This document shows positions 3,367 through 12,317 of a stretch of 24,000 nt of DNA, piece after piece. The first letter of the stretch is position 1. Every line of letters starts with the position of its first letter. Below the pieces are notes generated by a model that did not search any database, was not told where the DNA came from, and saw nothing but the letters and a program-made list of their open reading frames with translations. The DNA is from Candidatus Saccharimonadales bacterium (GTDB lineage: Bacteria > Patescibacteriota > Saccharimonadia > UBA4664 > SCTI01). The DNA is taken from contig JASLFZ010000061.1 of the NCBI GenBank assembly GCA_030150485.1, forward strand, positions 1 through 24,000. The letters are read 5' to 3'. The position numbers and the translations under genes were made by a program.

Positions 3367-5400
3367 TTAGCGCGTATCGACTTCGTTGATCACGGGCAGC
3401 ACCATTGGGTTGCGCTTGGTGCGGGCATAGAGGAAGTCGGCGACATCGTCGCGCAGGTTCATTTTGAACTTAGCCCAGTCGCCGTTACGCTGCTTGTCGC
3501 GGCGCTCAAAGCTCTTGCGGATCTCTTGGCGTACCCGGCCGATCAGCTCCTCGCTCTCCTTCATATGGACAAAGCCACGGGAGATGATGTCGGGGCTGGT
3601 GAGCAGGCGGCCGGACTTCTTATCAACGGTGGCGATAATCACCACCATGCCGTCCGAGCCCAGCGCCAGACGGTCGCGCAGTACCAGGTTTTCGACGTCA
3701 CCCACACCGGAGCCGTCGATCAAGATGATGCCACTTGGCACCCGCTCAACCTTCTTGGCGCCGCTGGCGGTGATTTCCAACACGTCGCCGTTATCCATCA
3801 CGTAACTGTTGGACGCGATGACGCCGTTTTTAACGGCGAGCTCGGCGTGACGGACCAACATGTGGAACTCACCGTGGATTGGCAGGAAGTACTTTGGCTT
3901 GATGAGGTTAATGAGCTCAGCGAGATCGTCGTTGGAGGCGTGACCGGAAACGTGCAGCAGCCCGAACTGATCGAGCTCGCGCAAGGTGTTGACGTACACC
4001 CGAGCACCCTCGCGCAGCAATGCATCAACGCTCGCTACCACAGCCTTTTCGTTACCCGGGATCGGGTTGGAGCTCAGAATGATGCTGTCTCCCGATTTAA
4101 TTTTGACGTGCGGGTGGTCGCCGGTGCTCATGCGACTCAGCGCCGAGTTAACCTCTCCCTGCGAACCGGTGCAAAGAATTACTACGTTATCATCGGACTT
4201 CTTGGCGGTATCTTGCACTCGGGTAATAAGCCCCGGCGGAACCTTGATGTAGCCCATTTTGACGGCCAGCTCGACGTTTGCAAGCATGCTGCGCCCAATG
4301 AAAGCGAGCTTACGATTAGCCTTTTCAGTGGCATTAATAATCAGCTGGACGCGCGTGAGCGAGCTCGCGAAGGTACTAATGATGATGCGGCCCGAAGCGC
4401 GACCAAATAGATCGTCAAGCGTGGGCTCAATCAGCTTTTCGCTGGGGGTACGGCCAACACGCTCGGTGTTGGTACTGTCACTCATCAGCAGCAAAACACC
4501 CTCTTTGCCGACCTCTTCAAGGCGGGCCAGGTCCATTTTGCGGCCATCGATAGGATCGGGATCCAGCCGCCAGTCGCCGGTGTGCACGAGCGTTCCAATT
4601 GGCGTGCGGATGATCGCGGCGGCGGCGTCGGGAATCGAGTGGGTCACCCGCGCCAGCTCAACGTTAAAGACACCGAGCTGAACGCGTTCGTGCGCATCGG
4701 GGTCCATCACCCGGAAGTCGGGCGTGCTGGCTAGCTTAAACTCCTCAATCTGCTTTTCGACCATAGCCAGGCTCAGCTTAGTGCCAAACACCGGTACGTG
4801 GAACTTGGGCAGCACATAGCCGGCCGCGCCAATGTGATCCATGTGACCGTGCGTAATAATAATGCCCCGAAGCTTATGGGCGTTCTTTTCGACGTAGGTG
4901 GTATCAGGAATAATGTAGTCGATGCCGGGCTGGTGTTCATCGGGGAAGGCAAACCCGAAGTCGACCATGATCATGTCGTCATCGTATTCGATGGCCATCA
5001 TGTTTTTTCCGACCTCACCGAGGCCACCAAGCGGGATAATGCGGATTTTAGGATCGCGATTGACCTGGTTGGCCTGGCGCCCCTTCACCTGGGTGGCCTG
5101 CTCGCCCCCAGTACCGTTGAAGCTGGATTTATTAACTGGGATAGATGGCGCGTTCATCAGCTTAGCCGCCATAGGGTTAGCTTGTTGCTGACGTCGCCGG
5201 GCCTTGCCATTGCTACCGCCGCCGTTGCCGCTACGACGCGGTGCGCCGGGATTACCGGCAGCCGGACGGTCGGTTTCGCGAACTTGCGGGCGTCCAGCAG
5301 CTGGCTGGCCGGGCCGCGCCGTCGGGCGGGACTGCCGCGGCGGGCGAGCGCTGTTTTGATTGTTTGATGTTTTATTTGATTGGTTGTTAGTTGGTTCCAT
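3367..5400 (-). CDS. rnj: Ribonuclease J (metallo-beta-lactamase/beta-CASP) with a roughly 110-aa low-complexity N-terminal extension
   Basis: 677 aa. HxHxDH motif ITHGHMDHIGA and RNase J-like body (PLGGLGEVGKNMMAIEYDDDMIMVDFG...). SD AAAGGA lies 5 nt upstream of the ATG at 5400. Confidence 0.93.
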   Translation of the reverse strand: MEPTNNQSNKTSNNQNSARPPRQSRPTARPGQPAAGRPQVRETDRPAAGNPGAPRRSGNGGGSNGKARRRQQQANPMAAKLMNAPSIPVNKSSFNGTGGEQATQVKGRQANQVNRDPKIRIIPLGGLGEVGKNMMAIEYDDDMIMVDFGFAFPDEHQPGIDYIIPDTTYVEKNAHKLRGIIITHGHMDHIGAAGYVLPKFHVPVFGTKLSLAMVEKQIEEFKLASTPDFRVMDPDAHERVQLGVFNVELARVTHSIPDAAAAIIRTPIGTLVHTGDWRLDPDPIDGRKMDLARLEEVGKEGVLLLMSDSTNTERVGRTPSEKLIEPTLDDLFGRASGRIIISTFASSLTRVQLIINATEKANRKLAFIGRSMLANVELAVKMGYIKVPPGLITRVQDTAKKSDDNVVILCTGSQGEVNSALSRMSTGDHPHVKIKSGDSIILSSNPIPGNEKAVVASVDALLREGARVYVNTLRELDQFGLLHVSGHASNDDLAELINLIKPKYFLPIHGEFHMLVRHAELAVKNGVIASNSYVMDNGDVLEITASGAKKVERVPSGIILIDGSGVGDVENLVLRDRLALGSDGMVVIIATVDKKSGRLLTSPDIISRGFVHMKESEELIGRVRQEIRKSFERRDKQRNGDWAKFKMNLRDDVADFLYARTKRNPMVLPVINEVDTR

Positions 5401-5458: not shown

Positions 5459-6040
5459 TTATGAGAGCTGGGCTAATACTTTCGGGATACCGGCAAAGTC
5501 ATCCAAGAGCTGCTGGCGCTGGCCGCCGTTATACAGCGCGGCTGCGGGATGATAAAGCGGCATGTACACCTGGCCGCCCTTGCGAAAGGCGCGACCATGG
5601 GCCTGGCTGATCTTGAGCTGTGGGAAGTATACGTTCATGGCGTGGCGACCCAAGAAAACGATGAGCTTGGGCGCGATCACTGCGAGCTGACACTGCAAAT
5701 AAGGCTTAAAGGCCTCGATTTCGGCAGGTAGTGGATCACGATTTTCCGGCGGCCGATATTTTACAATGTTGGTAATGTACACGTCGGCGCGGGCTAGGCT
5801 GATACTGGCCAGCATCTCGTCTAGAAACTTGCCAGCGGCGCCGACAAACGGTCGTCCCAGCTCATCCTCTTTAGCGCCGGGCGCCTCGCCGATAAAAACT
5901 ACCTCAGCGTCCGGACTCCCCTCCCCCATCACGAGCTGGGTGGCGGTGGCAGCCAGCTCAGGCGTCACCTTATCTGCCACAATAGCAGTGGCAATCTTAT
6001 CAAGCTCGATCTGCTGGGGGCTGGTGTTGGCCACGCTCAC
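5459..6040 (-). CDS. Uracil-DNA glycosylase, family 4-like, without the usual Fe-S cysteines
   Basis: 193 aa. Family-4 motif [34 protein letters not shown], and HPAA near the C-terminus. GTG start at 6040 as in the ORF track; the start is uncertain. Overlaps the pnp 3' end by 41 nt. Confidence 0.85.
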
Positions 6041-8159
6041 CGGACTCCTTGGCTGCCTTCATGCTCAAATTGAGGCGGCCTTTATCGTCAATTTCCATGA
6101 GCTTCACCGTTACAGTTTCGCCTTCCTTCAATACGTCGGTAACTTTATCGATACGGTGGTCGGCAATTTGCGAAATGTGCACCAGGCCATCTTTCCCCGG
6201 CATGATCTCCACAAACGCACCAAACTCCATAATTTTCACGACCGTTCCGGTGTAGATGGCGCCCACCTCCGGGCGGGCGGTGAGGCGGTCGATCCAGGCC
6301 ATGGCCTTTTTAGCACCCTCGCCATCGGTTGAAGCGATCATGATCAAGCCGGTATCCTCGATGTCGATTTCGACGCCGGTTTCGGCAATAATCTTGTTAA
6401 TGGTCTCGCCACCCTTACCGATAATCATCTTAATGTCGTTGGGATCGATCATCATTTTACTGATGCGTGGGGCGTGGGGGGCCAGCTCGGCTCGGGGCTT
6501 ATCGATCACTGCCATCATCGCCGCCATAATATGTGCCCGCCCCTTATGGGCCTGCGCGAGCGCCTGCTCCATGATTTTTGGTGTAATCCCCTTAACCTTA
6601 ATATCCATCTGCAGCGCGGTAATGCCGTCTTTGGTTCCGGCAACCTTAAAGTCCATGTCTCCGGCAAAGTCTTCGGCGCCCTGGATGTCGCTCAAGATGA
6701 CGTACTCCTTTTCACCGAGCACCAAGCCCATCGCAATACCAGCCACCGGCTTTTTAATCGGCACGCCGGCGTCCATGAGACTGATCGTGCTGCCGCAAAC
6801 GCTCGCCATACTGGTTGAGCCATTGGAGCTAATCACCTCCGAAACGGTGCGGATGGTGTAGGGAAAATCCTCGACGGCCGGGATGACCGGGAGGAGCGCT
6901 CGCTCGGCCAAGGCGCCGTGACCAATTTCGCGCCGGCCGGGGCTGCGCATCGGACGTACCTCGCCGGTACTATAGCCGGGGAAGTTGTAGTGGTGCATGT
7001 AGCGCTTAGTGGCGTCCAGCTCCATAGTGTCGAGGATCTGGGCGTAGCTGGTGCTGGCCAGAGTGGTGAGGTTGAGCACTTGGGTGGTGCCACGGGTAAA
7101 GAGGCCCGAGCCGTGGGTGCGCGGGATGATGCCTACCTGCATCGAAAGCGGCCGGATCTCTTCCGGCTTGCGGCCATCGGGACGAGCTTTTTCTTCGAGA
7201 ATAGCGCGGCGGATTTCTTTATCGATGACCTTTTCGAAGGCGCTCTCGAGGTCATCGCGGCCAAACTGACCGTCCTCGCCACCGAACTTTTCCACCACCT
7301 CGCGGCGGAGATTCTTAATGGCATCATGGCGCAAATACTGACTTTCGTGGCGGACGGCCTCACCGAGACGGTCTTTCAAGAAGTCTGCTAGCAGCACCTC
7401 GGCATCGTGGTTGTGGCGATGCAGCTCATACTCTTTGGCTGGCGCGCCGAGCTCACGCTTCATCTGCTCTTGGAGCTCAATGACCGGCTGCATGGTTTGA
7501 TGAGCCAGCTCAATTGCCTCAACCATGGTAGCCTCATCGATTTCCTCGGCACCCGCCTCAACCATCATGATGGCTTCTTTGGTACCGGCAACTGTTAGGT
7601 CAAGGTCGCTTCCGGCCATCTCGGCATTGGTTGGGTAAGCGGTTAATTTGCCATCGATGCGGCCGATACGAACGCCAGCCACCGGGCCTTCAAATGGAGC
7701 GCCGCTAATGCTAAGCGCGGCCGAGATCGCAATCATGGCAATCAGATCGGGGCTGTGTACCAGATCTGCGCTTAGAACGGTGGCGACCCCCTGGACGTCG
7801 TTACGAAATCCCTTAGGGAACAGCGGGCGGATCGGGCGGTCAATCAGACGCGCCGTCAATGTGGCCATCTCGCTAGCGCGACCCTCGCGCTTCATGAAGC
7901 GACTGCCAGAAATTTTGCCGGCGGCGTACATGCGTTCCTCGTAATCAATCAGCAACGGAAAGAAATCGATACCAGGACGGGGCGTGTTAGCCATAACGGC
8001 GGTACCAAGCACCATGGTGTCGCCATAACGCACGGTAACGGCACCATCGGCCAAAAAGGCGAGTTTACCGGTTTCAATGGTTAGCGTGCGGCCACAGAAT
8101 TCAGTTTCAAACCGCTGGGTCTTACCCCCAAAGGGGTGAATGATGTCAGATTGTGCCAT
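6000..8159 (-). CDS. pnp: Polyribonucleotide nucleotidyltransferase (PNPase)
   Basis: Two RNase PH-like cores, a KH domain ([12 protein letters not shown]) and an S1 domain ([15 protein letters not shown]). I place the start at the ATG at 8159 ([13 protein letters not shown]...), preceded by AAGGAG at 8168-8163. The track start at 8201 is a TTG extension. Confidence 0.95.
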
Positions 8160-8193
8160 AAGCTCCTTTACTATGCCTACGTGCCGGGGACAA

Positions 8194-8216
8194 GAATCCA
8201 ATCACAGATTGGAATC
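8194..8216 (-). promoter_or_regulatory. Hairpin in the rpsO-pnp intergenic leader
   Basis: Stem tccaatc (8197-8203) / gattgga (8207-8213) with a 3-nt loop, plus 2 further bp after one mismatch. It lies about 35 nt upstream of the pnp ATG. It is positionally analogous to the RNase III-processed pnp leader hairpin known from E. coli, but this analogy rests on position only. Confidence 0.35.
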
Positions 8217-8304
8217 AAAGCTCCATCACGTAAACATTGTTAGTGTTCCGCTCAGGTTTGAGCGCAGTGAGACGCTTTAGGCAAGCGCCCGGCTGCGATC
8301 GCGA

Positions 8305-8571
8305 CTAGCGACGTAAGTCGAGTTTTTTGAGGATGGCGCGGTAACGCTCGGCGTCATTCTTGCTTAAGTAATCAAGTAGGCGACGGCGCTTCCCGACCAT
8401 TTTCAGCAAACCACGGCGGGAGTGCTCATCCTTTTTGTGGAGTTGAAGGTGCTTCGTGAGCTCCTGAATTTGGCGCGTGAATATGCTGATCTGGACCTCT
8501 GGCGAACCAGTGTCCTTTTTATGGGTTTGATAATCGGTAATAACCTTCTTTTTGACGTCGGTTTTTAACAT
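8305..8571 (-). CDS. rpsO: 30S ribosomal protein S15
   Basis: [27 protein letters not shown]...[25 protein letters not shown] is a canonical S15 of 88 aa. The track start at 8610 adds 13 non-conserved residues. Confidence 0.93.
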
Positions 8572-8580
8572 TTCGGACTT

Positions 8581-8609
8581 TAGTGTAGCAAAAAACTGCT
8601 TAAAACGCA
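8581..8609 (-). promoter_or_regulatory. Putative rpsO promoter (-35 TTGCGT, 17-nt spacer, -10 TACACT)
   Basis: Minus strand reads TTGCGT (8609-8604), N17, TACACT (8586-8581). The ATG at 8571 lies 9 nt after the -10, so the leader would be about 2-3 nt with no SD. Confidence 0.5.
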
Positions 8610-8616
8610 ATGGGTG

Positions 8617-8901
8617 CTACACTTCTCCGGTATCGCGGCTCTCGAGACGAGCGATCCGAAAACCGTGCTCGGTAACCATCTGCTTCACCACATGAAGGTC
8701 TTCTTTGGTAATGGATATATCGGTAAAAGCGGTGTGGAACTTGCGGCTGGTCGCGGCAGCGAAGCTATCAAACTCGGTTTTAAACTGACCAAACCGGCCG
8801 TCGCTTTCGTCGAAGCGCTGATTCATCTCATCAAAGCGAGGCTGCATGACATCCGCTATGCTGACTTTTATGTTACTGAGATCGGTAGCTGTTAATGCCA
8901 T
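8617..8901 (-). CDS. Hypothetical 94-aa protein, predicted helical, with RFDE/RFG repeats
   Basis: ATG at 8901 is preceded by AAAGGAG with a 7-nt spacer and by a GCTACAAT -10 element (8929-8924). I recognise no family. Sequence: MALTATDLSNIKVSIADVMQPRFDEMNQRFDESDGRFGQFKTEFDSF... Confidence 0.6.
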   Translation of the reverse strand: MALTATDLSNIKVSIADVMQPRFDEMNQRFDESDGRFGQFKTEFDSFAAATSRKFHTAFTDISITKEDLHVVKQMVTEHGFRIARLESRDTGEV

Positions 8902-8956
8902 CAGTTCGCTCCTTTTGCAGTTAATTGTAGCGCATAAGCGTTTCTAACTCTATGGT

Positions 8957-8975
8957 ATGCGAACGAAATGCGAAC
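8957..8975. repeat. Direct repeat atgcgaac-gaa-atgcgaac (8 nt x2, 11-nt period)
   Basis: Copies at 8957-8964 and 8968-8975, about 28-50 nt upstream of the -10 of the 94-aa ORF. The spacing is one helical turn. This may be a protein-binding site, but that is speculative. Confidence 0.4.
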
Positions 8976-9051
8976 AACAAGACTGGTTCTTTTTGGGGGA
9001 TGGGCTACAATTGCCATCTCATTTTAGCGGGTTGAGATTAACAAATTATTA

Positions 9052-9102
9052 AACGTTTCGTCCTTTTGGACTCATCAGAAAGACTACACAGTCTTTAACG
9101 TT
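9052..9102 (-). ncRNA. Hammerhead self-cleaving ribozyme motif, type III topology
   Basis: Minus strand 9102->9052 reads AACGU-U|AAAGACU-GUGU-AGUCUUU-CUGAUGA-GUCC-AAAA-GGAC-GAA-ACGUU.
- Stem III: 5 bp, 9102-9098 with 9056-9052, including A15.1-U16.1.
- Cleavage triplet GUU: H17 is U at 9097, with predicted scission between 9097 and 9096.
- Stem I: 7-bp hairpin, 9096-9090 with 9085-9079.
- Core C3-A9: CUGAUGA at 9078-9072.
- Stem II: 4 bp with G10.1-C11.1, 9071-9068 with 9063-9060.
- G12A13A14: 9059-9057.
All invariant core positions are present. Confidence 0.85.
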
Positions 9103-9177
9103 GGGCCGCGAGGGACGGAGCAGCAGCAAGGATGAAACATCACTTGTGCGCCCGAACGCCCCTCACGGAAGCGCCTA

Positions 9178-9633
9178 TTAGCTAGGCCGTGGCACCTGGT
9201 TGATCTCGAGCTGTATGGCTTCACGAAGCTCGGCAACCAGGTGGTCTTTTTGCCGCCGCGAGTAACTTTCGTGCTTATCCAGCCATTCGATCACATGATG
9301 TGAGGTGAGGCTCACCAATACGGGTATCTTTGGCCATTTACGTCGAGGTATGAGCAGCTGGCTAACCTCGAATTTCTGCCCATTGTGCGAGGCAAATACA
9401 AGTATCTCGATGTCGTGCCTCCAATCACTCTTTGGGGCTTCCCCCAGAAGAGTGAGCTGCGCCATATACAGCGGAAGGGGCCAGGAGAAGTCGGCCACTT
9501 GCTTCACAGAGACAAATAGCTCCACTGTCGAATTGAGAGACGGCATTACAGCTTTGTTGCCTGATACTATCTGATTCGTCATGTCAATGCTCCCTTGGGA
9601 GGATGGGTAGGTAATCAACCATTCAACTGCCAT
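9178..9633 (-). CDS. Hypothetical protein, 151 aa from ATG 9633 or 134 aa from ATG 9582
   Basis: The open frame comes from the ORF track. The ATG at 9582 has the SD AGGGAG with a 7-nt spacer. The ATG at 9633 lies 17 nt after a perfect extended -10. I recognise no family and see no TM segment. The local sequence looks more AT-rich than the flanking genes (by eye, not computed). Confidence 0.6.
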   Translation of the reverse strand: MAVEWLITYPSSQGSIDMTNQIVSGNKAVMPSLNSTVELFVSVKQVADFSWPLPLYMAQLTLLGEAPKSDWRHDIEILVFASHNGQKFEVSQLLIPRRKWPKIPVLVSLTSHHVIEWLDKHESYSRRQKDHLVAELREAIQLEINQVPRPS

Positions 9634-9650
9634 ATGGCAGGAATATCTAT

Positions 9651-9679
9651 ATTATAGCACTATTCATTAATAATATCAA
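9651..9679 (-). promoter_or_regulatory. Strong sigma70-type promoter for the orphan cassette (-35 TTGATA, N17 with TGn, -10 TATAAT)
   Basis: Minus strand reads TTGATA (9679-9674), a 17-nt spacer ending TGC, then TATAAT (9656-9651). The -35 lies inside the last truB codons. Confidence 0.6.
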
Positions 9680-10397
9680 GCAATACGTTGATAGGAGTTG
9701 TAAGGCTTGCTGCGCTGACGGATTCAAGGGTGGCCGCCTGGCTAATATCATAGCTGCCTACTTGTGTACGGCGCAGACTGCTCAAATAGGCACCAGTTGA
9801 CAGCTGCGTGCCGATATCCTCCCCCAATGTACGGATATAGGTTCCGCTGGAGACGCTGGCCTCAAACCTGACATGGGGGTAAGTGTAATCCAGCAGCTTA
9901 ATAGCGTGGATGGTCACGCGGCGGGGTGGCATTTCGACGGTCTTACCCTGGCGAGCCAGCTTGTAGGCCCGCACACCGTTGATCTTAATAGCCGAGTACT
10001 GGTTAGGCGTTTGGGTAATTTCACCGGTAAAGTACTCTAAAGCGGCTGTAACCTCCTTTTGAGTAGGCTGGCGGTCCGAAACGGGGGTCAACTCCCCTTC
10101 GGCGTCTCCGGTGCTCGAGTTCGCGCCGAGCGTCATTTCAGCTACATAGGTTTTATCGAGACCGACCAGCTGGCTGGCCTGCTTAGTAGCCGAGCCCAAC
10201 AGCATTAGCATCAGGCCGGTTGCCATTGGGTCGAGCGTACCCGCATGGCCAATTTTACGGACGCCGGTCTGACGACGCAGTGCCCGAACAATGTCGAACG
10301 AGCTAATACCAGATGGTTTATCAATCAAGAGGAGGCCACTCGGCCCTAGAGTCGCAGGTATCGGCTTAATACTCAAATTCGTCGAGGCGCTGGGCAA
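9660..10397 (-). CDS. truB: tRNA pseudouridine(55) synthase TruB
   Basis: 245 aa. LLLIDKPSGISSFDIV and GHAGTLDPMATGLMLM with the catalytic Asp motif. The only in-frame start candidate in the track is the TTG at 10397. Overlaps the upstream DHH gene end by 32 nt. Confidence 0.9.
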   Translation of the reverse strand: MPSASTNLSIKPIPATLGPSGLLLIDKPSGISSFDIVRALRRQTGVRKIGHAGTLDPMATGLMLMLLGSATKQASQLVGLDKTYVAEMTLGANSSTGDAEGELTPVSDRQPTQKEVTAALEYFTGEITQTPNQYSAIKINGVRAYKLARQGKTVEMPPRRVTIHAIKLLDYTYPHVRFEASVSSGTYIRTLGEDIGTQLSTGAYLSSLRRTQVGSYDISQAATLESVSAASLTTPINVLLDIINE

Positions 10398-11814
10398 ACA
10401 TGGGGTTGTTGGTCGGGTTGGTGGGCTTAGCTGGCTGGACAGGGCGAGCCGGGCGACGATCGCTGGTGTCGTTGATGAGTGGCTCCGGCTCGGTGGTCAT
10501 GAGCGGGTTAGCTGGGTGACTCGAGGAGTTCGCAGCGGGACGCTCATTCTCGATGTGCTGCGGAGGCAGGAGCTCTTCCAGGGCGGACGATTCGGCCTCG
10601 GCCTCTTGAGGCGACGATGGTACGGCCGGCACGGGGAACTCGGGCTGGTTGGGCTCAGAATCGGACTGCTTAGGCGCCTCGGGTGCGGGTTCTGGTGATG
10701 GTGTGGGGGCAGGCTGCGCTACGGGAGCGGCCGGAAGCTCCGGTTGGTCGTAGCTAGGCGCCGAAGGCAAGGTCGGTTGAGATACCGGTGCCGGTTGTGG
10801 CTCCGGGTCAGCTGGCTGAATCGGCTGAGGACGCGGGGTAGGCGGCTGCGATGGAGCCTGAGACTGAGATTGCGGTGCAGGCGCAAAGGGCTGCGGCTGT
10901 CTTTGGAACATAGGGGCCTCCGGTGATTGGGTTGGTTGGGACGAGCTAGCCGCTTGGGCTACGGGACGCGATTCGCGGTCCTGATTGCGGTTACGCGTCG
11001 GAGCAGATGATTGCGGCGCCGGTCGCTTATCGCGATCAGCCCGCTCGCGCTCGGTGCGCTCTCGGTAGAGACCTTTGACGATCTTTTGTTGGTCGGCGCC
11101 CATAGCGAGCATCTGGGCGGCCACGGTCATGGTTTTGGCGGTAGTGTGGGTCGCGGTAAAGCGATCGGTTGCGGCCATAATACCGGTCAACATAGTTGTA
11201 GCGATTTGCTCATCGATAAGGCCATTCTGGAGCGACTCCGAGAGCGCAATTAAAATTTCAGCCAAGCTGGCAGCTGAGGTCTCTACCAGGTTGATGGCAC
11301 CATACTGTTCATTAATGCGGTGAAAATCGATGTTGGCGAGCGGGATTTTGCGCAAAAGCTCGGCGTTCTGCGCGTACACCTTATCGATACGACTGTAGGA
11401 TGCTACTCCGAGCACGATAATGAGGTCAAACTGGTACTCGCCAAAGGCGTAACCCATATCGCGCGGGCCAAAACTGCCAGCAAAGGGAGTGATGTGGATA
11501 TTGAGCTTCCCCTCTTCGATGGTGTACTTAAGCTTATCAACCTCGGCGTGGCCTAAATCGACTTGCACGATAAAATCGCGCAGGCCACCAAGCGTGCGCT
11601 CAATCAGGTTGGTAGACAAAAACTTGGTACCGGCCGGAATGTCATCGCTGATGACGGCCGTGACTTTTTTGCCATATTTCCGCAGGAGAGCTGATAGCGC
11701 AATAGTCGAAGCCACCTGGTCGATTGACGGGTGTTGACCGGTCATAATCAGGATGGTTTCGGCTTGGCGGATCGCCTCCGACGTTTGTTGTTTGGGAGTT
11801 AGTTCTTTATCCAT
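10366..11814 (-). CDS. DHH-family (NrnA-like) domain protein with degenerate catalytic motifs and a roughly 230-aa Pro/Gln/Ala-rich C-terminal tail
   Basis: 482 aa. The N-terminal 250 aa or so align by eye to the DHH motifs, all altered:
- Motif I: QHPSIDQVAST
- Motif II: IIVLGVAS
- Motif III: NIDFHRIN
- Motif IV: GIMAATDRFT
There is no DHHA1 GGGH motif. The tail is PAPQSSAPTRN...PQPIQPADPEPQPAPV... Confidence 0.8.
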   Translation of the reverse strand: MDKELTPKQQTSEAIRQAETILIMTGQHPSIDQVASTIALSALLRKYGKKVTAVISDDIPAGTKFLSTNLIERTLGGLRDFIVQVDLGHAEVDKLKYTIEEGKLNIHITPFAGSFGPRDMGYAFGEYQFDLIIVLGVASYSRIDKVYAQNAELLRKIPLANIDFHRINEQYGAINLVETSAASLAEILIALSESLQNGLIDEQIATTMLTGIMAATDRFTATHTTAKTMTVAAQMLAMGADQQKIVKGLYRERTERERADRDKRPAPQSSAPTRNRNQDRESRPVAQAASSSQPTQSPEAPMFQRQPQPFAPAPQSQSQAPSQPPTPRPQPIQPADPEPQPAPVSQPTLPSAPSYDQPELPAAPVAQPAPTPSPEPAPEAPKQSDSEPNQPEFPVPAVPSSPQEAEAESSALEELLPPQHIENERPAANSSSHPANPLMTTEPEPLINDTSDRRPARPVQPAKPTNPTNNPMFAQRLDEFEY

Positions 11815-11909
11815 ACTTGACTCTGGGAATTATTTATTTTATCAAGAAAGTCCCTATCTGTCAATACCTGGACGCTGCTTATGGTTTTTAGGTGTTCGCA
11901 GGCTCCTGC

Positions 11910-11938
11910 TTTACAAGCCGGCTTAGATGCGCTAAAAT
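11910..11938 (+). promoter_or_regulatory. Putative rpsT promoter (-35 TTTACA, N17, -10 TAAAAT)
   Basis: TTTACA at 11910-11915, spacer 11916-11932, TAAAAT at 11933-11938. The ATG at 11949 is 10 nt downstream and has no SD. Confidence 0.55.
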
Positions 11939-11948
11939 CTCATCTGTT

Positions 11949-12317
11949 ATGCCGATTATTGCATCCGCCATTAAACGAGTCCGCCAGCAGGCCAAGCGTC
12001 GCAGCCGCAACCTGCAGGTTAAGCGTGCCATCCACAACGATGTGCGCGCCTTTACGGATGCGGTCGCAACTGGCGACGCGAAAGTAATTAGCGAGACGCT
12101 GGTCGCCGCCATCAGCGAGATTGACCGAGCGGTTAAAAAGGGTACGATTCACCGTAACACCGCCGGGCGGCGTAAGTCGCAGCTGCAAAAGCTAGCCAAC
12201 AGTGCCCAGAGCGAAGCGCCCACCAAGCCAGCCCCTAAGGCTAAACCCGCTACTAAAGCTAAGGCCGCGGCCAAGCCGAAAGCCAAACCAAAGGCCAAAA
12301 CGGCTAAATCCTCTTAA
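11949..12317 (+). CDS. rpsT: 30S ribosomal protein S20 with a Lys/Ala/Pro-rich C-terminal tail
   Basis: MPIIASAIKRVRQQAKRRSRNLQVKRA... is a canonical S20 N-terminus. The tail is APTKPAPKAKPATKAKAAAKPKAKPKAKTAKSS. The track start at 11892 adds 19 non-conserved residues. Confidence 0.9.
   Translation: MPIIASAIKRVRQQAKRRSRNLQVKRAIHNDVRAFTDAVATGDAKVISETLVAAISEIDRAVKKGTIHRNTAGRRKSQLQKLANSAQSEAPTKPAPKAKPATKAKAAAKPKAKPKAKTAKSS

Follow-up and report, generated by a model that had tools for sequence, protein, structure and literature searches.

What might a hammerhead ribozyme do between two small genes in the core of a bacterial chromosome? The question is raised by 24,000 nucleotides (nt) of DNA, positions 1 to 24,000 of contig JASLFZ010000061.1 in assembly GCA_030150485.1, and by "the window" we mean this whole stretch. 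It belongs to the chromosome of an uncultured Candidatus Saccharimonadales bacterium, one of the TM7 bacteria within the candidate phyla radiation (CPR); the genomes nearest to it are Candidatus Saccharimonadales MAGs. Its minus strand carries, between truB and rpsO, a type III hammerhead ribozyme motif that is genuine, evolutionarily conserved, and not a product of chance. The order of the locus is DHH, truB, promoter, a variable open reading frame (ORF) of 134 amino acids (aa), long hairpin, hammerhead, a 94-aa ORF (ORF94), rpsO, and pnp. The promoter, the 5' untranslated region (UTR), the 134-aa ORF, the hairpin, and the hammerhead make up a cassette that occurs in one Saccharimonadales subclade. 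The reading that we favor, with a probability of roughly 0.75, is that of a cis-cleaving type III hammerhead that forms the last module of this cassette and would uncouple the inserted gene from ORF94-rpsO-pnp; we infer the cleavage from the sequence.

The hammerhead motif

From 9102 to 9052 the minus strand reads AACGU-U/AAAGACU-GUGU-AGUCUUU-CUGAUGA-GUCC-AAAA-GGAC-GAA-ACGUU, where the slash marks the predicted cleavage point. The elements, with helix lengths in base pairs (bp), are the following:

9052–9102, minus strand: type III hammerhead ribozyme, recognized from its sequence, by Rfam RF00008, by a covariance model built from phage hammerheads only (R1), and by a descriptor scan
9102–9098 with 9056–9052, minus strand: stem III, 5 bp, perfect
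9097, minus strand: U17 (H17) by hammerhead numbering
9096–9097, minus strand: predicted cleavage site, 3' of U17 (9097) and 5' of A1.1 (9096), from hammerhead numbering applied to the sequence
9079–9096, minus strand: stem I hairpin AAAGACU / AGUCUUU (9096–9090 with 9085–9079), 7 bp, perfect, loop GUGU
9072–9078, minus strand: catalytic core C3-A9, CUGAUGA, invariant in 40 of 40 aligned sequences
9060–9071, minus strand: stem II hairpin GUCC-AAAA-GGAC (9071–9068 with 9063–9060), 4 bp, perfect, including the G10.1-C11.1 pair
9052–9059, minus strand: G12 A13 A14 (9059–9057) and the 3' strand of stem III, ACGUU, partner of 9098–9102

Stem III is open and the other two stems end in loops, which is the type III topology. 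The A15.1-U16.1 pair is A9056-U9098, the G10.1-C11.1 pair is G9071-C9060, and the NUH triplet is GUU at 9099-9097. The GAA of G12 A13 A14 is, like the core, invariant in all 40 aligned sequences. Covariance-model matches span a slightly wider interval, 9050-9104, and in RNAfold the lowest-energy structure of a 66-nt segment is the three-way junction. The predicted products are an upstream RNA ending in ...AACGUU>p, with a 2',3'-cyclic phosphate, and a downstream RNA beginning 5'-OH-AAAGACU....

An initial annotation, made from the letters of the window, had described a complete type III hammerhead with every invariant position present, mismatch-free helices of 7, 4, and 5 bp, and a cut between 9097 and 9096. 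Sequence, descriptor scan, and RNAfold agree with that description, and hammerhead numbering puts the cut at the same position. Two of its counts need correction. The motif lies 75 nt, not 76 nt, past the stop codon of the upstream ORF (9178–9180), while the distance of about 150 nt to the 94-aa ORF stands (150 nt to the ATG at 8901). The window holds six CUGAUGA heptamers, so that besides the one in the motif there are five, all but one of them on the minus strand, rather than the four that had been counted; a descriptor scan of both strands over the 24 kb found that none of these five makes a hammerhead, in line with what had been claimed for the four.

Significance of the match

RF00008 (Hammerhead_3) is the sole Rfam family to match the window at E ≤ 0.1, with 40.2 bits and an E-value of 1.1e-5 for the 24 kb (1.2e-7 on 251 nt). 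The alignment is full-length, covering model positions 1–54 of 54, and the core and all three helices match. The window element and the RF00008 consensus (clan CL00010) are thus alike in core and helices, and differ in that the window has a longer stem I and a shorter loop 2. The 40.2 bits fall short of the 48.5-bit gathering score, so an Rfam scan of the window at the default gathering threshold reports nothing, and the match above threshold to which the initial annotation had looked for support did not appear. The gathering score is conservative for a 54-nt model; it is a curated annotation cut-off and not a structural requirement. Model R1, built from 33 phage hammerheads, scores the window element at 69.3 bits (E 2.3e-17).

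The frequency of such a motif by chance was estimated in 1500 simulated 24-kb windows of the same composition, generated by a first-order Markov process. The strict motif (stems of at least 5, 4, and 5 bp with short loops) occurred in 0 of the 1500, and a very loose version in 17. The earlier view that the motif is no artefact of composition is upheld.

Conservation in related genomes

Related loci were gathered via TruB and ORF94 homologues and were scanned with the descriptor scanner and with R1. They are arranged as follows:

L007, L013, L015: truB, variable ORF, hairpin, hammerhead, leader, ORF94, rpsO
L012: contig begins inside the upstream hairpin; then hammerhead, leader, ORF94
L010: truB, promoter-like box, hammerhead, leader, ORF94; the variable ORF has been deleted
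L001: same spacer filled by a small ORF unlike that of the other loci, a hairpin, and a diverged hammerhead; two more small ORFs follow; without ORF94
L014: variable ORF and ORF94, without hammerhead
L011: truB, leader, ORF94, without hammerhead
L093–L098, L103: truB, ORF94, rpsO, without cassette and without hammerhead
L008, L009: truB adjoins rpsO directly

Five related metagenomic loci (L007, L010, L012, L013, and L015) carry the ribozyme in the corresponding place. The copy in the more distant L001 genome reads UGCAGUC/AUAAGAU-GUGGU-AUCUUAU-CUGAUGA-GCUG-GAAA-CAGC-GAAACUGCA; all three stems have changed and pairing is kept. R1 scores the five close homologues at 64–69 bits and the L001 copy at 50.6 bits, and in about 197 kb of Saccharimonadales loci it matches only seven hammerheads and Logan contig L006, which comes from the window organism itself. 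An Rfam scan of 58 kb of related loci at E ≤ 1 missed the L001 copy owing to filters, and a short-range scan found it at 23.7 bits, mis-aligned by the model. The window locus also shows that genuine members of the phage-type subclass are hidden by the Rfam gathering score.

The six close copies share, as a pairwise mean, 91% identity in the ribozyme (52 nt), 73% in the adjacent leader, and 78.5% in ORF94 DNA. The substitutions fall into a simple pattern. In stem III the outer pair has changed from A-U to U-A (L012) and pair 16.3-15.3 from C-G to U-A (L010), and in stem II a U-A pair has become a U-G wobble (L015). H17 is U or C among the homologues, and the further variable columns are two positions of loop 1, the first position of loop 2, and one position 3' of stem III. 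The six close copies contain no core change and no broken pair. Between L013 and L015, in which synonymous sites are near saturation (dS about 0.9–1.1), the ribozyme differs at 3 of 52 nt.

A wider alignment of 40 sequences of the subclass has 94.9% of its cells paired, a percentage inflated because the phage rows were chosen with a scanner that accepts perfect pairing only (it let through 69 of 78 raw pattern matches), and double changes in 13 of 17 pairs. None of 500 shuffles reaches the observed values, and slid controls are 32–43% paired. Stem I, under the same choice of rows, shows double changes in six of its seven pairs with 100% of cells paired. Covariation in related genomes had been named in the initial annotation as a check on the motif; it is seen as the compensatory or wobble changes in L010, L012, and L015 and as the replaced stems of L001. 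The central claim made there, a complete type III hammerhead placed between two ORFs, is backed by covariance models, homologous loci, and the substitution pattern.

Peripheral loops

The short loops had suggested at first a resemblance to a minimal hammerhead. Dufour et al. give the loop motifs of natural hammerheads as UNmYN for loop 1 and RNnA for loop 2; the commonest class of loop 1 is the UN3YN / UN3UA hexaloop, and that of loop 2 comprises GNRA and AAAA tetraloops (PMC2632901). When stem I of the window is read as 6 bp, loop 1 is the hexaloop UGUGUA, which fits UN3UA, and the AAAA of loop 2 fits RNnA. The corresponding loops of L001 are UGUGGUA and GAAA. In all Saccharimonadales copies loop 1 keeps its 5'-side U and loop 2 its AAA, and both loop motifs recur in about 60 phage copies. 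Because both peripheral motifs are present and conserved, the ribozyme is not a minimal hammerhead, and the earlier comparison has to be given up: UGUGUA and AAAA match the motifs of natural tertiary contact (PMC2632901), and this match suggests a tertiary loop-loop contact.

The cassette and its edges

The elements on either side of the ribozyme, in the direction of transcription, are the following:

9651–9679, minus strand: near-consensus sigma-70-type promoter, TTGATA, 17 nt, TGcTATAAT (extended -10; 11 of 12 positions), by pattern match only
9178–9582, minus strand: variable small ORF, 134 aa, starting at M18 of the 151-aa reading
9106–9168, minus strand: long imperfect hairpin, a 12-bp outer helix CCGUGAGGGGCG / CGUCCCUCGCGG enclosing an inner hairpin, between the ORF stop and the ribozyme
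9021–9026, minus strand: TAAAAT -10-like box, about 30 nt past the ribozyme, from an alignment of 15 loci
8902–9051, minus strand: conserved ORF94 leader with blocks ATTGTAGCC, CAGTCTTGTTGTTCG, TACAAT, and AAGGAG, from an alignment of 15 loci
8617–8901, minus strand: ORF94, coiled-coil protein of Saccharimonadales, by homology and synteny (L010 5977–6261, L011 5821–6105)

The cassette promoter shares sequence with the final codons of truB, and it is a conserved feature of the cassette's left edge. The same promoter occurs in L013 (2198–2226; 11 of 12 positions) and is visible in L007, L010, L015, and L001. Pattern scans found no terminator-like site in 8200–9800 and, in L014, no intrinsic terminator in place of the ribozyme.

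The initial annotation had read the upstream gene as a 151-aa ORF and had called both ORFs orphans. A conserved CCTCCCAAGGGAG-N-ATG, common to L007, L013, L014, and L015, sets the true start at M18 (9582) and the length at 134 aa. The word orphan fits neither gene, as the upstream ORF is a member of a fast-evolving family and ORF94 has 39 clusters of homologues. Counterparts of the variable ORF lie at 5819–6205 in L007, 2315–2725 in L013, 2379–2771 in L014, and 2318–2725 in L015, and identity among the five proteins is 18–25%. The ratio of nonsynonymous to synonymous substitution rates (dN/dS) between L013 and L015 is about 0.19, which indicates a coding sequence. No Pfam, PHROG, or PADLOC family matches the variable ORF, a database search returns only itself, and the predicted structure of ORF134 has a confidence (predicted local distance difference test, pLDDT) of 56, too low for a fold search. 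Its 5' UTR (9583–9650) is conserved and ends in CAUCCUCCCAAGGGAG; the Shine-Dalgarno sequence could pair with a preceding CCUCCC.

The hairpin upstream of the ribozyme is kept in L007, L013, and L015, and the fold of 9040–9185 has a free energy of -53.7 kcal/mol (z = -4.5 against shuffles).

The right edge of the cassette can be placed by comparison with genomes that have no ribozyme. Across 15 loci, the DNA right after the ribozyme, including the TAAAAT box and the blocks CAGTCTTGTTGTTCG and TACAAT, is homologous to the stretch behind the truB stop of ribozyme-less genomes. Because of that homology, the promoter, 5' UTR, ORF, hairpin, and hammerhead are one unit, with the truB stop on one side and ORF94's native promoter and leader on the other. 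In the ribozyme-less genomes (L011 5670–5700; L103; L093–L098) the truB stop (..TTTAA) is followed directly by a TAnAAT box, and in the ribozyme-bearing ones the same ..GTTTAAT sequence is the 3' strand of stem III with its flank. Since ..GTTTAAT is shared in this way, one edge of the extra stretch, whether it was inserted in some genomes or deleted from others, coincides with the 3' end of the ribozyme.

The TAAAAT box aligns with the TATAAT, TAGAAT, or TACAAT box that stands directly after the truB stop in the ribozyme-less genomes, and it is likely the promoter of ORF94. With a promoter-like box downstream of it, the ribozyme belongs to the 3' end of the upstream cassette. The initial annotation was right to place the predicted cleavage point between the two ORFs, and this box argues against a simple bicistronic spacer.

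ORF94 is conserved to a degree that the variable ORF is not. Its 39 clusters of homologues, 92–106 aa long, lie between truB and rpsO at every locus examined, identity in close relatives is 76–91%, and dN/dS is about 0.03, the mark of slow evolution. The predicted structure is a single long helix (residues 5–90, pLDDT 75) and is uninformative. No Pfam, PHROG, or PADLOC family matches it, and a sequence search of solved structures gave weak coiled-coil matches only. The fixed place beside S15 and PNPase suggests a role linked to RNA or the ribosome.

The window clade and L001 have unrelated ORFs in this spacer, and in both the cassette closes with a hairpin followed by a hammerhead. In L001, two further small ORFs are each followed by a shared repeat (7560–7678, 8096–8175, 7137–7170), in which a GC hairpin GGGGGCUCGAAAGAGCCCCC lies inside an imperfect palindrome of about 110 nt (GTTGCAGTGGG...CCCACTACAAC); its right half also follows the L001 hammerhead. 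The repeats match no Rfam family. They may mark the border of a cassette, resemble a terminator in function, or represent an RNA not yet recognised. Another ribozyme class was considered; Rfam lends it no support, and the repeats look like a GC hairpin with a promoter-like box. Integron-like attC sites were rejected by eye, as the terminal heptamers misfit RYYYAAC / GTTRRRY.

Relation to phage and virusoid hammerheads

The pattern CTGATGAGTCCNAAAGGACGAAAC, which covers the core and stem II, was found in 77 viral contigs; of the 78 matches, 69 adopt a type III fold in which stem I has 7 bp (or 8 bp) and its loop is of the UGUGUR / UGAGUG type. The window ribozyme is a member of this subclass, abundant between phage genes and defined by a 7-bp stem I, a UGUGUR-type loop, and a stem II of GUCC-NAAA-GGAC. 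It shares with the intergenic type III hammerheads of phages and prophages (PMC3088659, PMC6155905) the core, the GUCC-NAAA-GGAC stem II, and the 7-bp stem I with its UGUGUR / UGAGUG loop. It shares with those of the literature also a small non-conserved ORF alongside (PMC6155905). Hammerheads of bacteria and phages flank such ORFs, and a part in the processing of polycistronic RNA has been proposed and is unproven (PMC3088659, PMC6155905, PMC6765202).

The placement of the motif is likewise that of phage copies. In a set of 90 phage hammerheads of the same design, the ribozyme comes a median of 31.5 nt after the stop of the preceding same-strand ORF (no more than 100 nt in 94% of cases) and a median of 39 nt before the next ORF, and for 87% of them the 45 nt ahead of the ribozyme contain a hairpin with a folding energy of -10 kcal/mol or better. 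The window has the same succession of ORF stop, hairpin (9106–9168), ribozyme, and next same-strand ORF, and phage copies resemble it in lying about 30–80 nt after an ORF stop, right after a stable hairpin, and ahead of a same-strand gene.

The setting is different. The host locus is the classical truB / rpsO-pnp neighborhood, a core chromosomal operon of a CPR bacterium, with truB, rpsO, pnp, UDG, RNase J, holA, and rpsT as neighbors, and phage genes are not seen nearby. The next ORF is about 150 nt away with a promoter-like box between, in contrast to the median of 39 nt in phages. The window ribozyme is a single copy, whereas several phage contigs hold 2–4 copies flanking ORFs. Searches of PHROGs, a phage database, and the viral contigs gave no match for the cassette or ORF94; the viral contigs contain no relative of ORF94 and none has the exact stem I of the window. 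Searches of phage genomes with blastn and tblastn also gave no match, and the variable-ORF alignment is too divergent for a locus search. In four viral contigs (L026, L043, L058, L071) three or four hammerheads of the same subclass each follow an ORF stop and a GUGUCUUCAAAGACAC-type hairpin, and these contigs are a rich set for the study of ribozyme-punctuated operons.

The viral matches include a few short records of plant-virusoid-like length (322–457 nt). The plus-strand hammerheads of plant virusoids and satellites (sLTSV-, vVTMoV-, and sTRSV-like; L036, L045, L089) have a stem I of about 7 bp with a GUGU or GCGU loop and a stem II of GUCC-GAAA-GGAC, and the UNmYN / RNnA loop motifs apply to them as in the window. 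Those ribozymes process rolling-circle multimers of circular RNA replicons; the window has a single copy in a DNA chromosome, in an mRNA context, with no repeat unit.

Proposed function and its alternatives

We propose that the ribozyme acts within the cassette in the following way. Transcripts would start at the cassette promoter or read through from truB without meeting an intrinsic terminator. The ribozyme, once transcribed, would fold and cut after U9097. The upstream product would be the mRNA of the small ORF, ending in the long hairpin, a tail of about 10 nt, and a 2',3'-cyclic phosphate. The downstream product would carry a 5'-OH and begin with the stem I hairpin. The short, A/U-rich, and weak 5-bp stem III would allow the products to separate. 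The net effect would be that the inserted gene is uncoupled in stability and expression from the essential ORF94-rpsO-pnp, with the ribozyme serving as 3'-end maker and insulator. ORF94-rpsO-pnp appear to have promoters of their own, and the 3' product might be degraded by RNase J (3367–5400) or protected by its 5' hairpin.

Two known systems are instructive here. RiboJ-type synthetic insulators, attributed to Lou et al. (2012), reportedly consist of the sTRSV hammerhead plus a hairpin. In RiboJ the upstream RNA is cut away to leave a defined 5'-OH end that starts with a hairpin, and the window element would work alike. RiboJ is engineered, whereas the window element is natural, its hairpin lies upstream of the ribozyme on the 5' product, and it is a putative insulator. 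The second system is the glmS ribozyme / RNase J1 pathway, in which, as Collins et al. are said to have found in 2007, the products of glmS cleavage are degraded in Bacillus. As in that pathway, a 5'-OH product would arise in an organism that encodes RNase J, and the downstream product might be degraded. Unlike the glmS product, whose ribozyme is of a different class and depends on a metabolite, the window product would have its 5' end base-paired in stem I, which may block a 5' exonuclease.

Several points weigh against a cleaving module that insulates the cassette. With a promoter-like box downstream, the operon may not need the cleaved RNA. In a fold of 146 nt (9040–9185, minus strand) the 3' strand of stem III (CGUUUA) pairs with UAGGCG beside the ORF stop codon and replaces stem III, and the active fold could therefore face competition from its flanks. 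GUU is a permitted cleavage site, yet it is rarer than GUC in the aligned set. The RF00008 score is under the gathering score, the pairing in phage rows is overstated by the way they were chosen, and self-cleavage itself is a prediction from sequence. The ribozyme is also dispensable: L011 and L014 keep ORF94 without it, L014 keeps the variable ORF as well, and in more distant genomes truB-ORF94-rpsO stands without the ribozyme and without the cassette.

The alternative that survives best, and that we nevertheless consider unlikely, is that the ribozyme serves the downstream genes, trimming the ORF94-rpsO-pnp mRNA to a hairpin-capped 5'-OH end and thereby setting its stability or translation. 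It would explain why L010 keeps the ribozyme though the variable ORF is gone (promoter, hammerhead, leader, ORF94 remain) and why the ribozyme of the window subclade is always about 145–165 nt upstream of ORF94. The phage copies also speak for it, since with the next ORF at a median of 39 nt after the ribozyme the 3' product there must be a working mRNA. It is opposed by the at least nine distinct loci that have ORF94-rpsO-pnp and no hammerhead (L011, L014, L093–L098, L103), by the -10-like box downstream of the ribozyme that aligns with the post-truB box of ribozyme-less genomes, and by L001, in which a hammerhead occupies the same spacer, yet without ORF94.

Selection bears on the idea of an evolutionary leftover, in which the hammerhead arrived with a cassette derived from a phage or mobile element and persists without present function; we regard this as improbable. 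The subclass is phage-typical, with 77 viral contigs matching core and stem II, the cassette is present in only part of the clade, and the ribozyme has been lost at least twice. GC content dips to 0.49–0.51 over 8001–10000, against about 0.56 in the rest of the window, a dip that covers rpsO, ORF94, the leader, the ribozyme, and the cassette and that would suit such an origin. A neutral relic, however, would have gathered mutations that break the core or the helices. The ribozyme is instead the best conserved non-coding piece of the locus (91%, against 73% for the leader), and all of its changes preserve the fold despite near-saturated synonymous sites; nor did searches of phage sequences turn up anything similar to the cassette, ORF94, or this exact stem I.

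Less probable still is a conditional ribozyme, whose cleavage would be switched by an alternative pairing or a bound factor so that processing is regulated. The 146-nt minimum free energy fold, which pairs the 3' strand of stem III with sequence near the ORF stop codon, is the one hint of such a switch, and regulated cleavage was raised as a possibility for phage hammerheads by Perreault et al. in 2011 (PMC3088659). The 66-nt fold is the canonical structure, however, the alternative pairing cannot form in L010, where the upstream sequence is deleted, and there is no ligand-binding or extra domain, stems I and II being minimal-length hairpins.

A chance consensus match, or part of a circular-RNA or retrozyme-like replicon, is barely credible: the motif is short and its Rfam score is under the gathering score, yet no simulated window contained the strict motif, six further loci show compensatory conservation, and, as the 24 kb hold a single hammerhead, counting both strands, and no repeat unit, a unit-length viroid-like RNA could not be excised.

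The cis-cleaving ribozyme at the end of the cassette thus remains the preferred reading. Beyond it, we offer tentatively, and with more doubt than belief, the view that a cassette with its own promoter and a hypervariable small gene has colonised the truB-rpsO spacer, and that the hammerhead is its fixed 3' border, acting as a natural RiboJ-like insulator. If so, a fast-changing accessory gene, perhaps engaged in host-episymbiont or phage conflict, could use a strong promoter beside the essential rpsO-pnp without disturbing the operon, and prokaryotic hammerheads would gain a concrete and testable biological role.

The class, the subclass, and the type of context of this ribozyme are all known; the lineage is new, and the locus is unusually informative. 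In the collection of papers that was searched, none connects hammerheads to Saccharibacteria or to the candidate phyla radiation. The hammerheads known from bacteria and phages number in the hundreds to thousands, and their function is listed as an open question (PMC6155905, PMC6765202). For that question the locus is clean, with a single ribozyme in a conserved neighborhood of essential genes. It comes with natural "knock-out" relatives that have the cassette without the ribozyme (L014), the ribozyme without the ORF (L010), or neither (L011, L093–L103), and RNase J and PNPase, the would-be processors of 5'-OH and 2',3'-cyclic-phosphate products, are encoded next door.

Neighboring genes

The genes named above have the following positions:

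9660–10397, minus strand: truB (tRNA pseudouridine-55 synthase), upstream of the cassette, Pfam PF01509 and PF16198
8305–8571, minus strand: rpsO (ribosomal protein S15), Pfam PF00312, start at 8571 from 88-aa homologues
6000–8201, minus strand: pnp, PNPase domains (Pfam)
3367–5400, minus strand: RNase J

The long minus-strand ORFs of the window encode RNase J, a UDG-family glycosylase, PNPase, S15, TruB, a DHH-family protein, the DNA polymerase III delta subunit (holA), and a MazG-like protein; S20 (rpsT) is on the plus strand. Three of these proteins, all with housekeeping roles, carry long extensions of low complexity. About 115 N-terminal residues of RNase J are of low complexity and rich in N/Q/P/R/G. 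In the DHH protein (10366–11814, minus strand) the C-terminal half, about 230 residues long, is rich in Pro, Gln, and Ala, and S20 (11892–12317, plus strand) ends in a Lys/Ala-rich tail.

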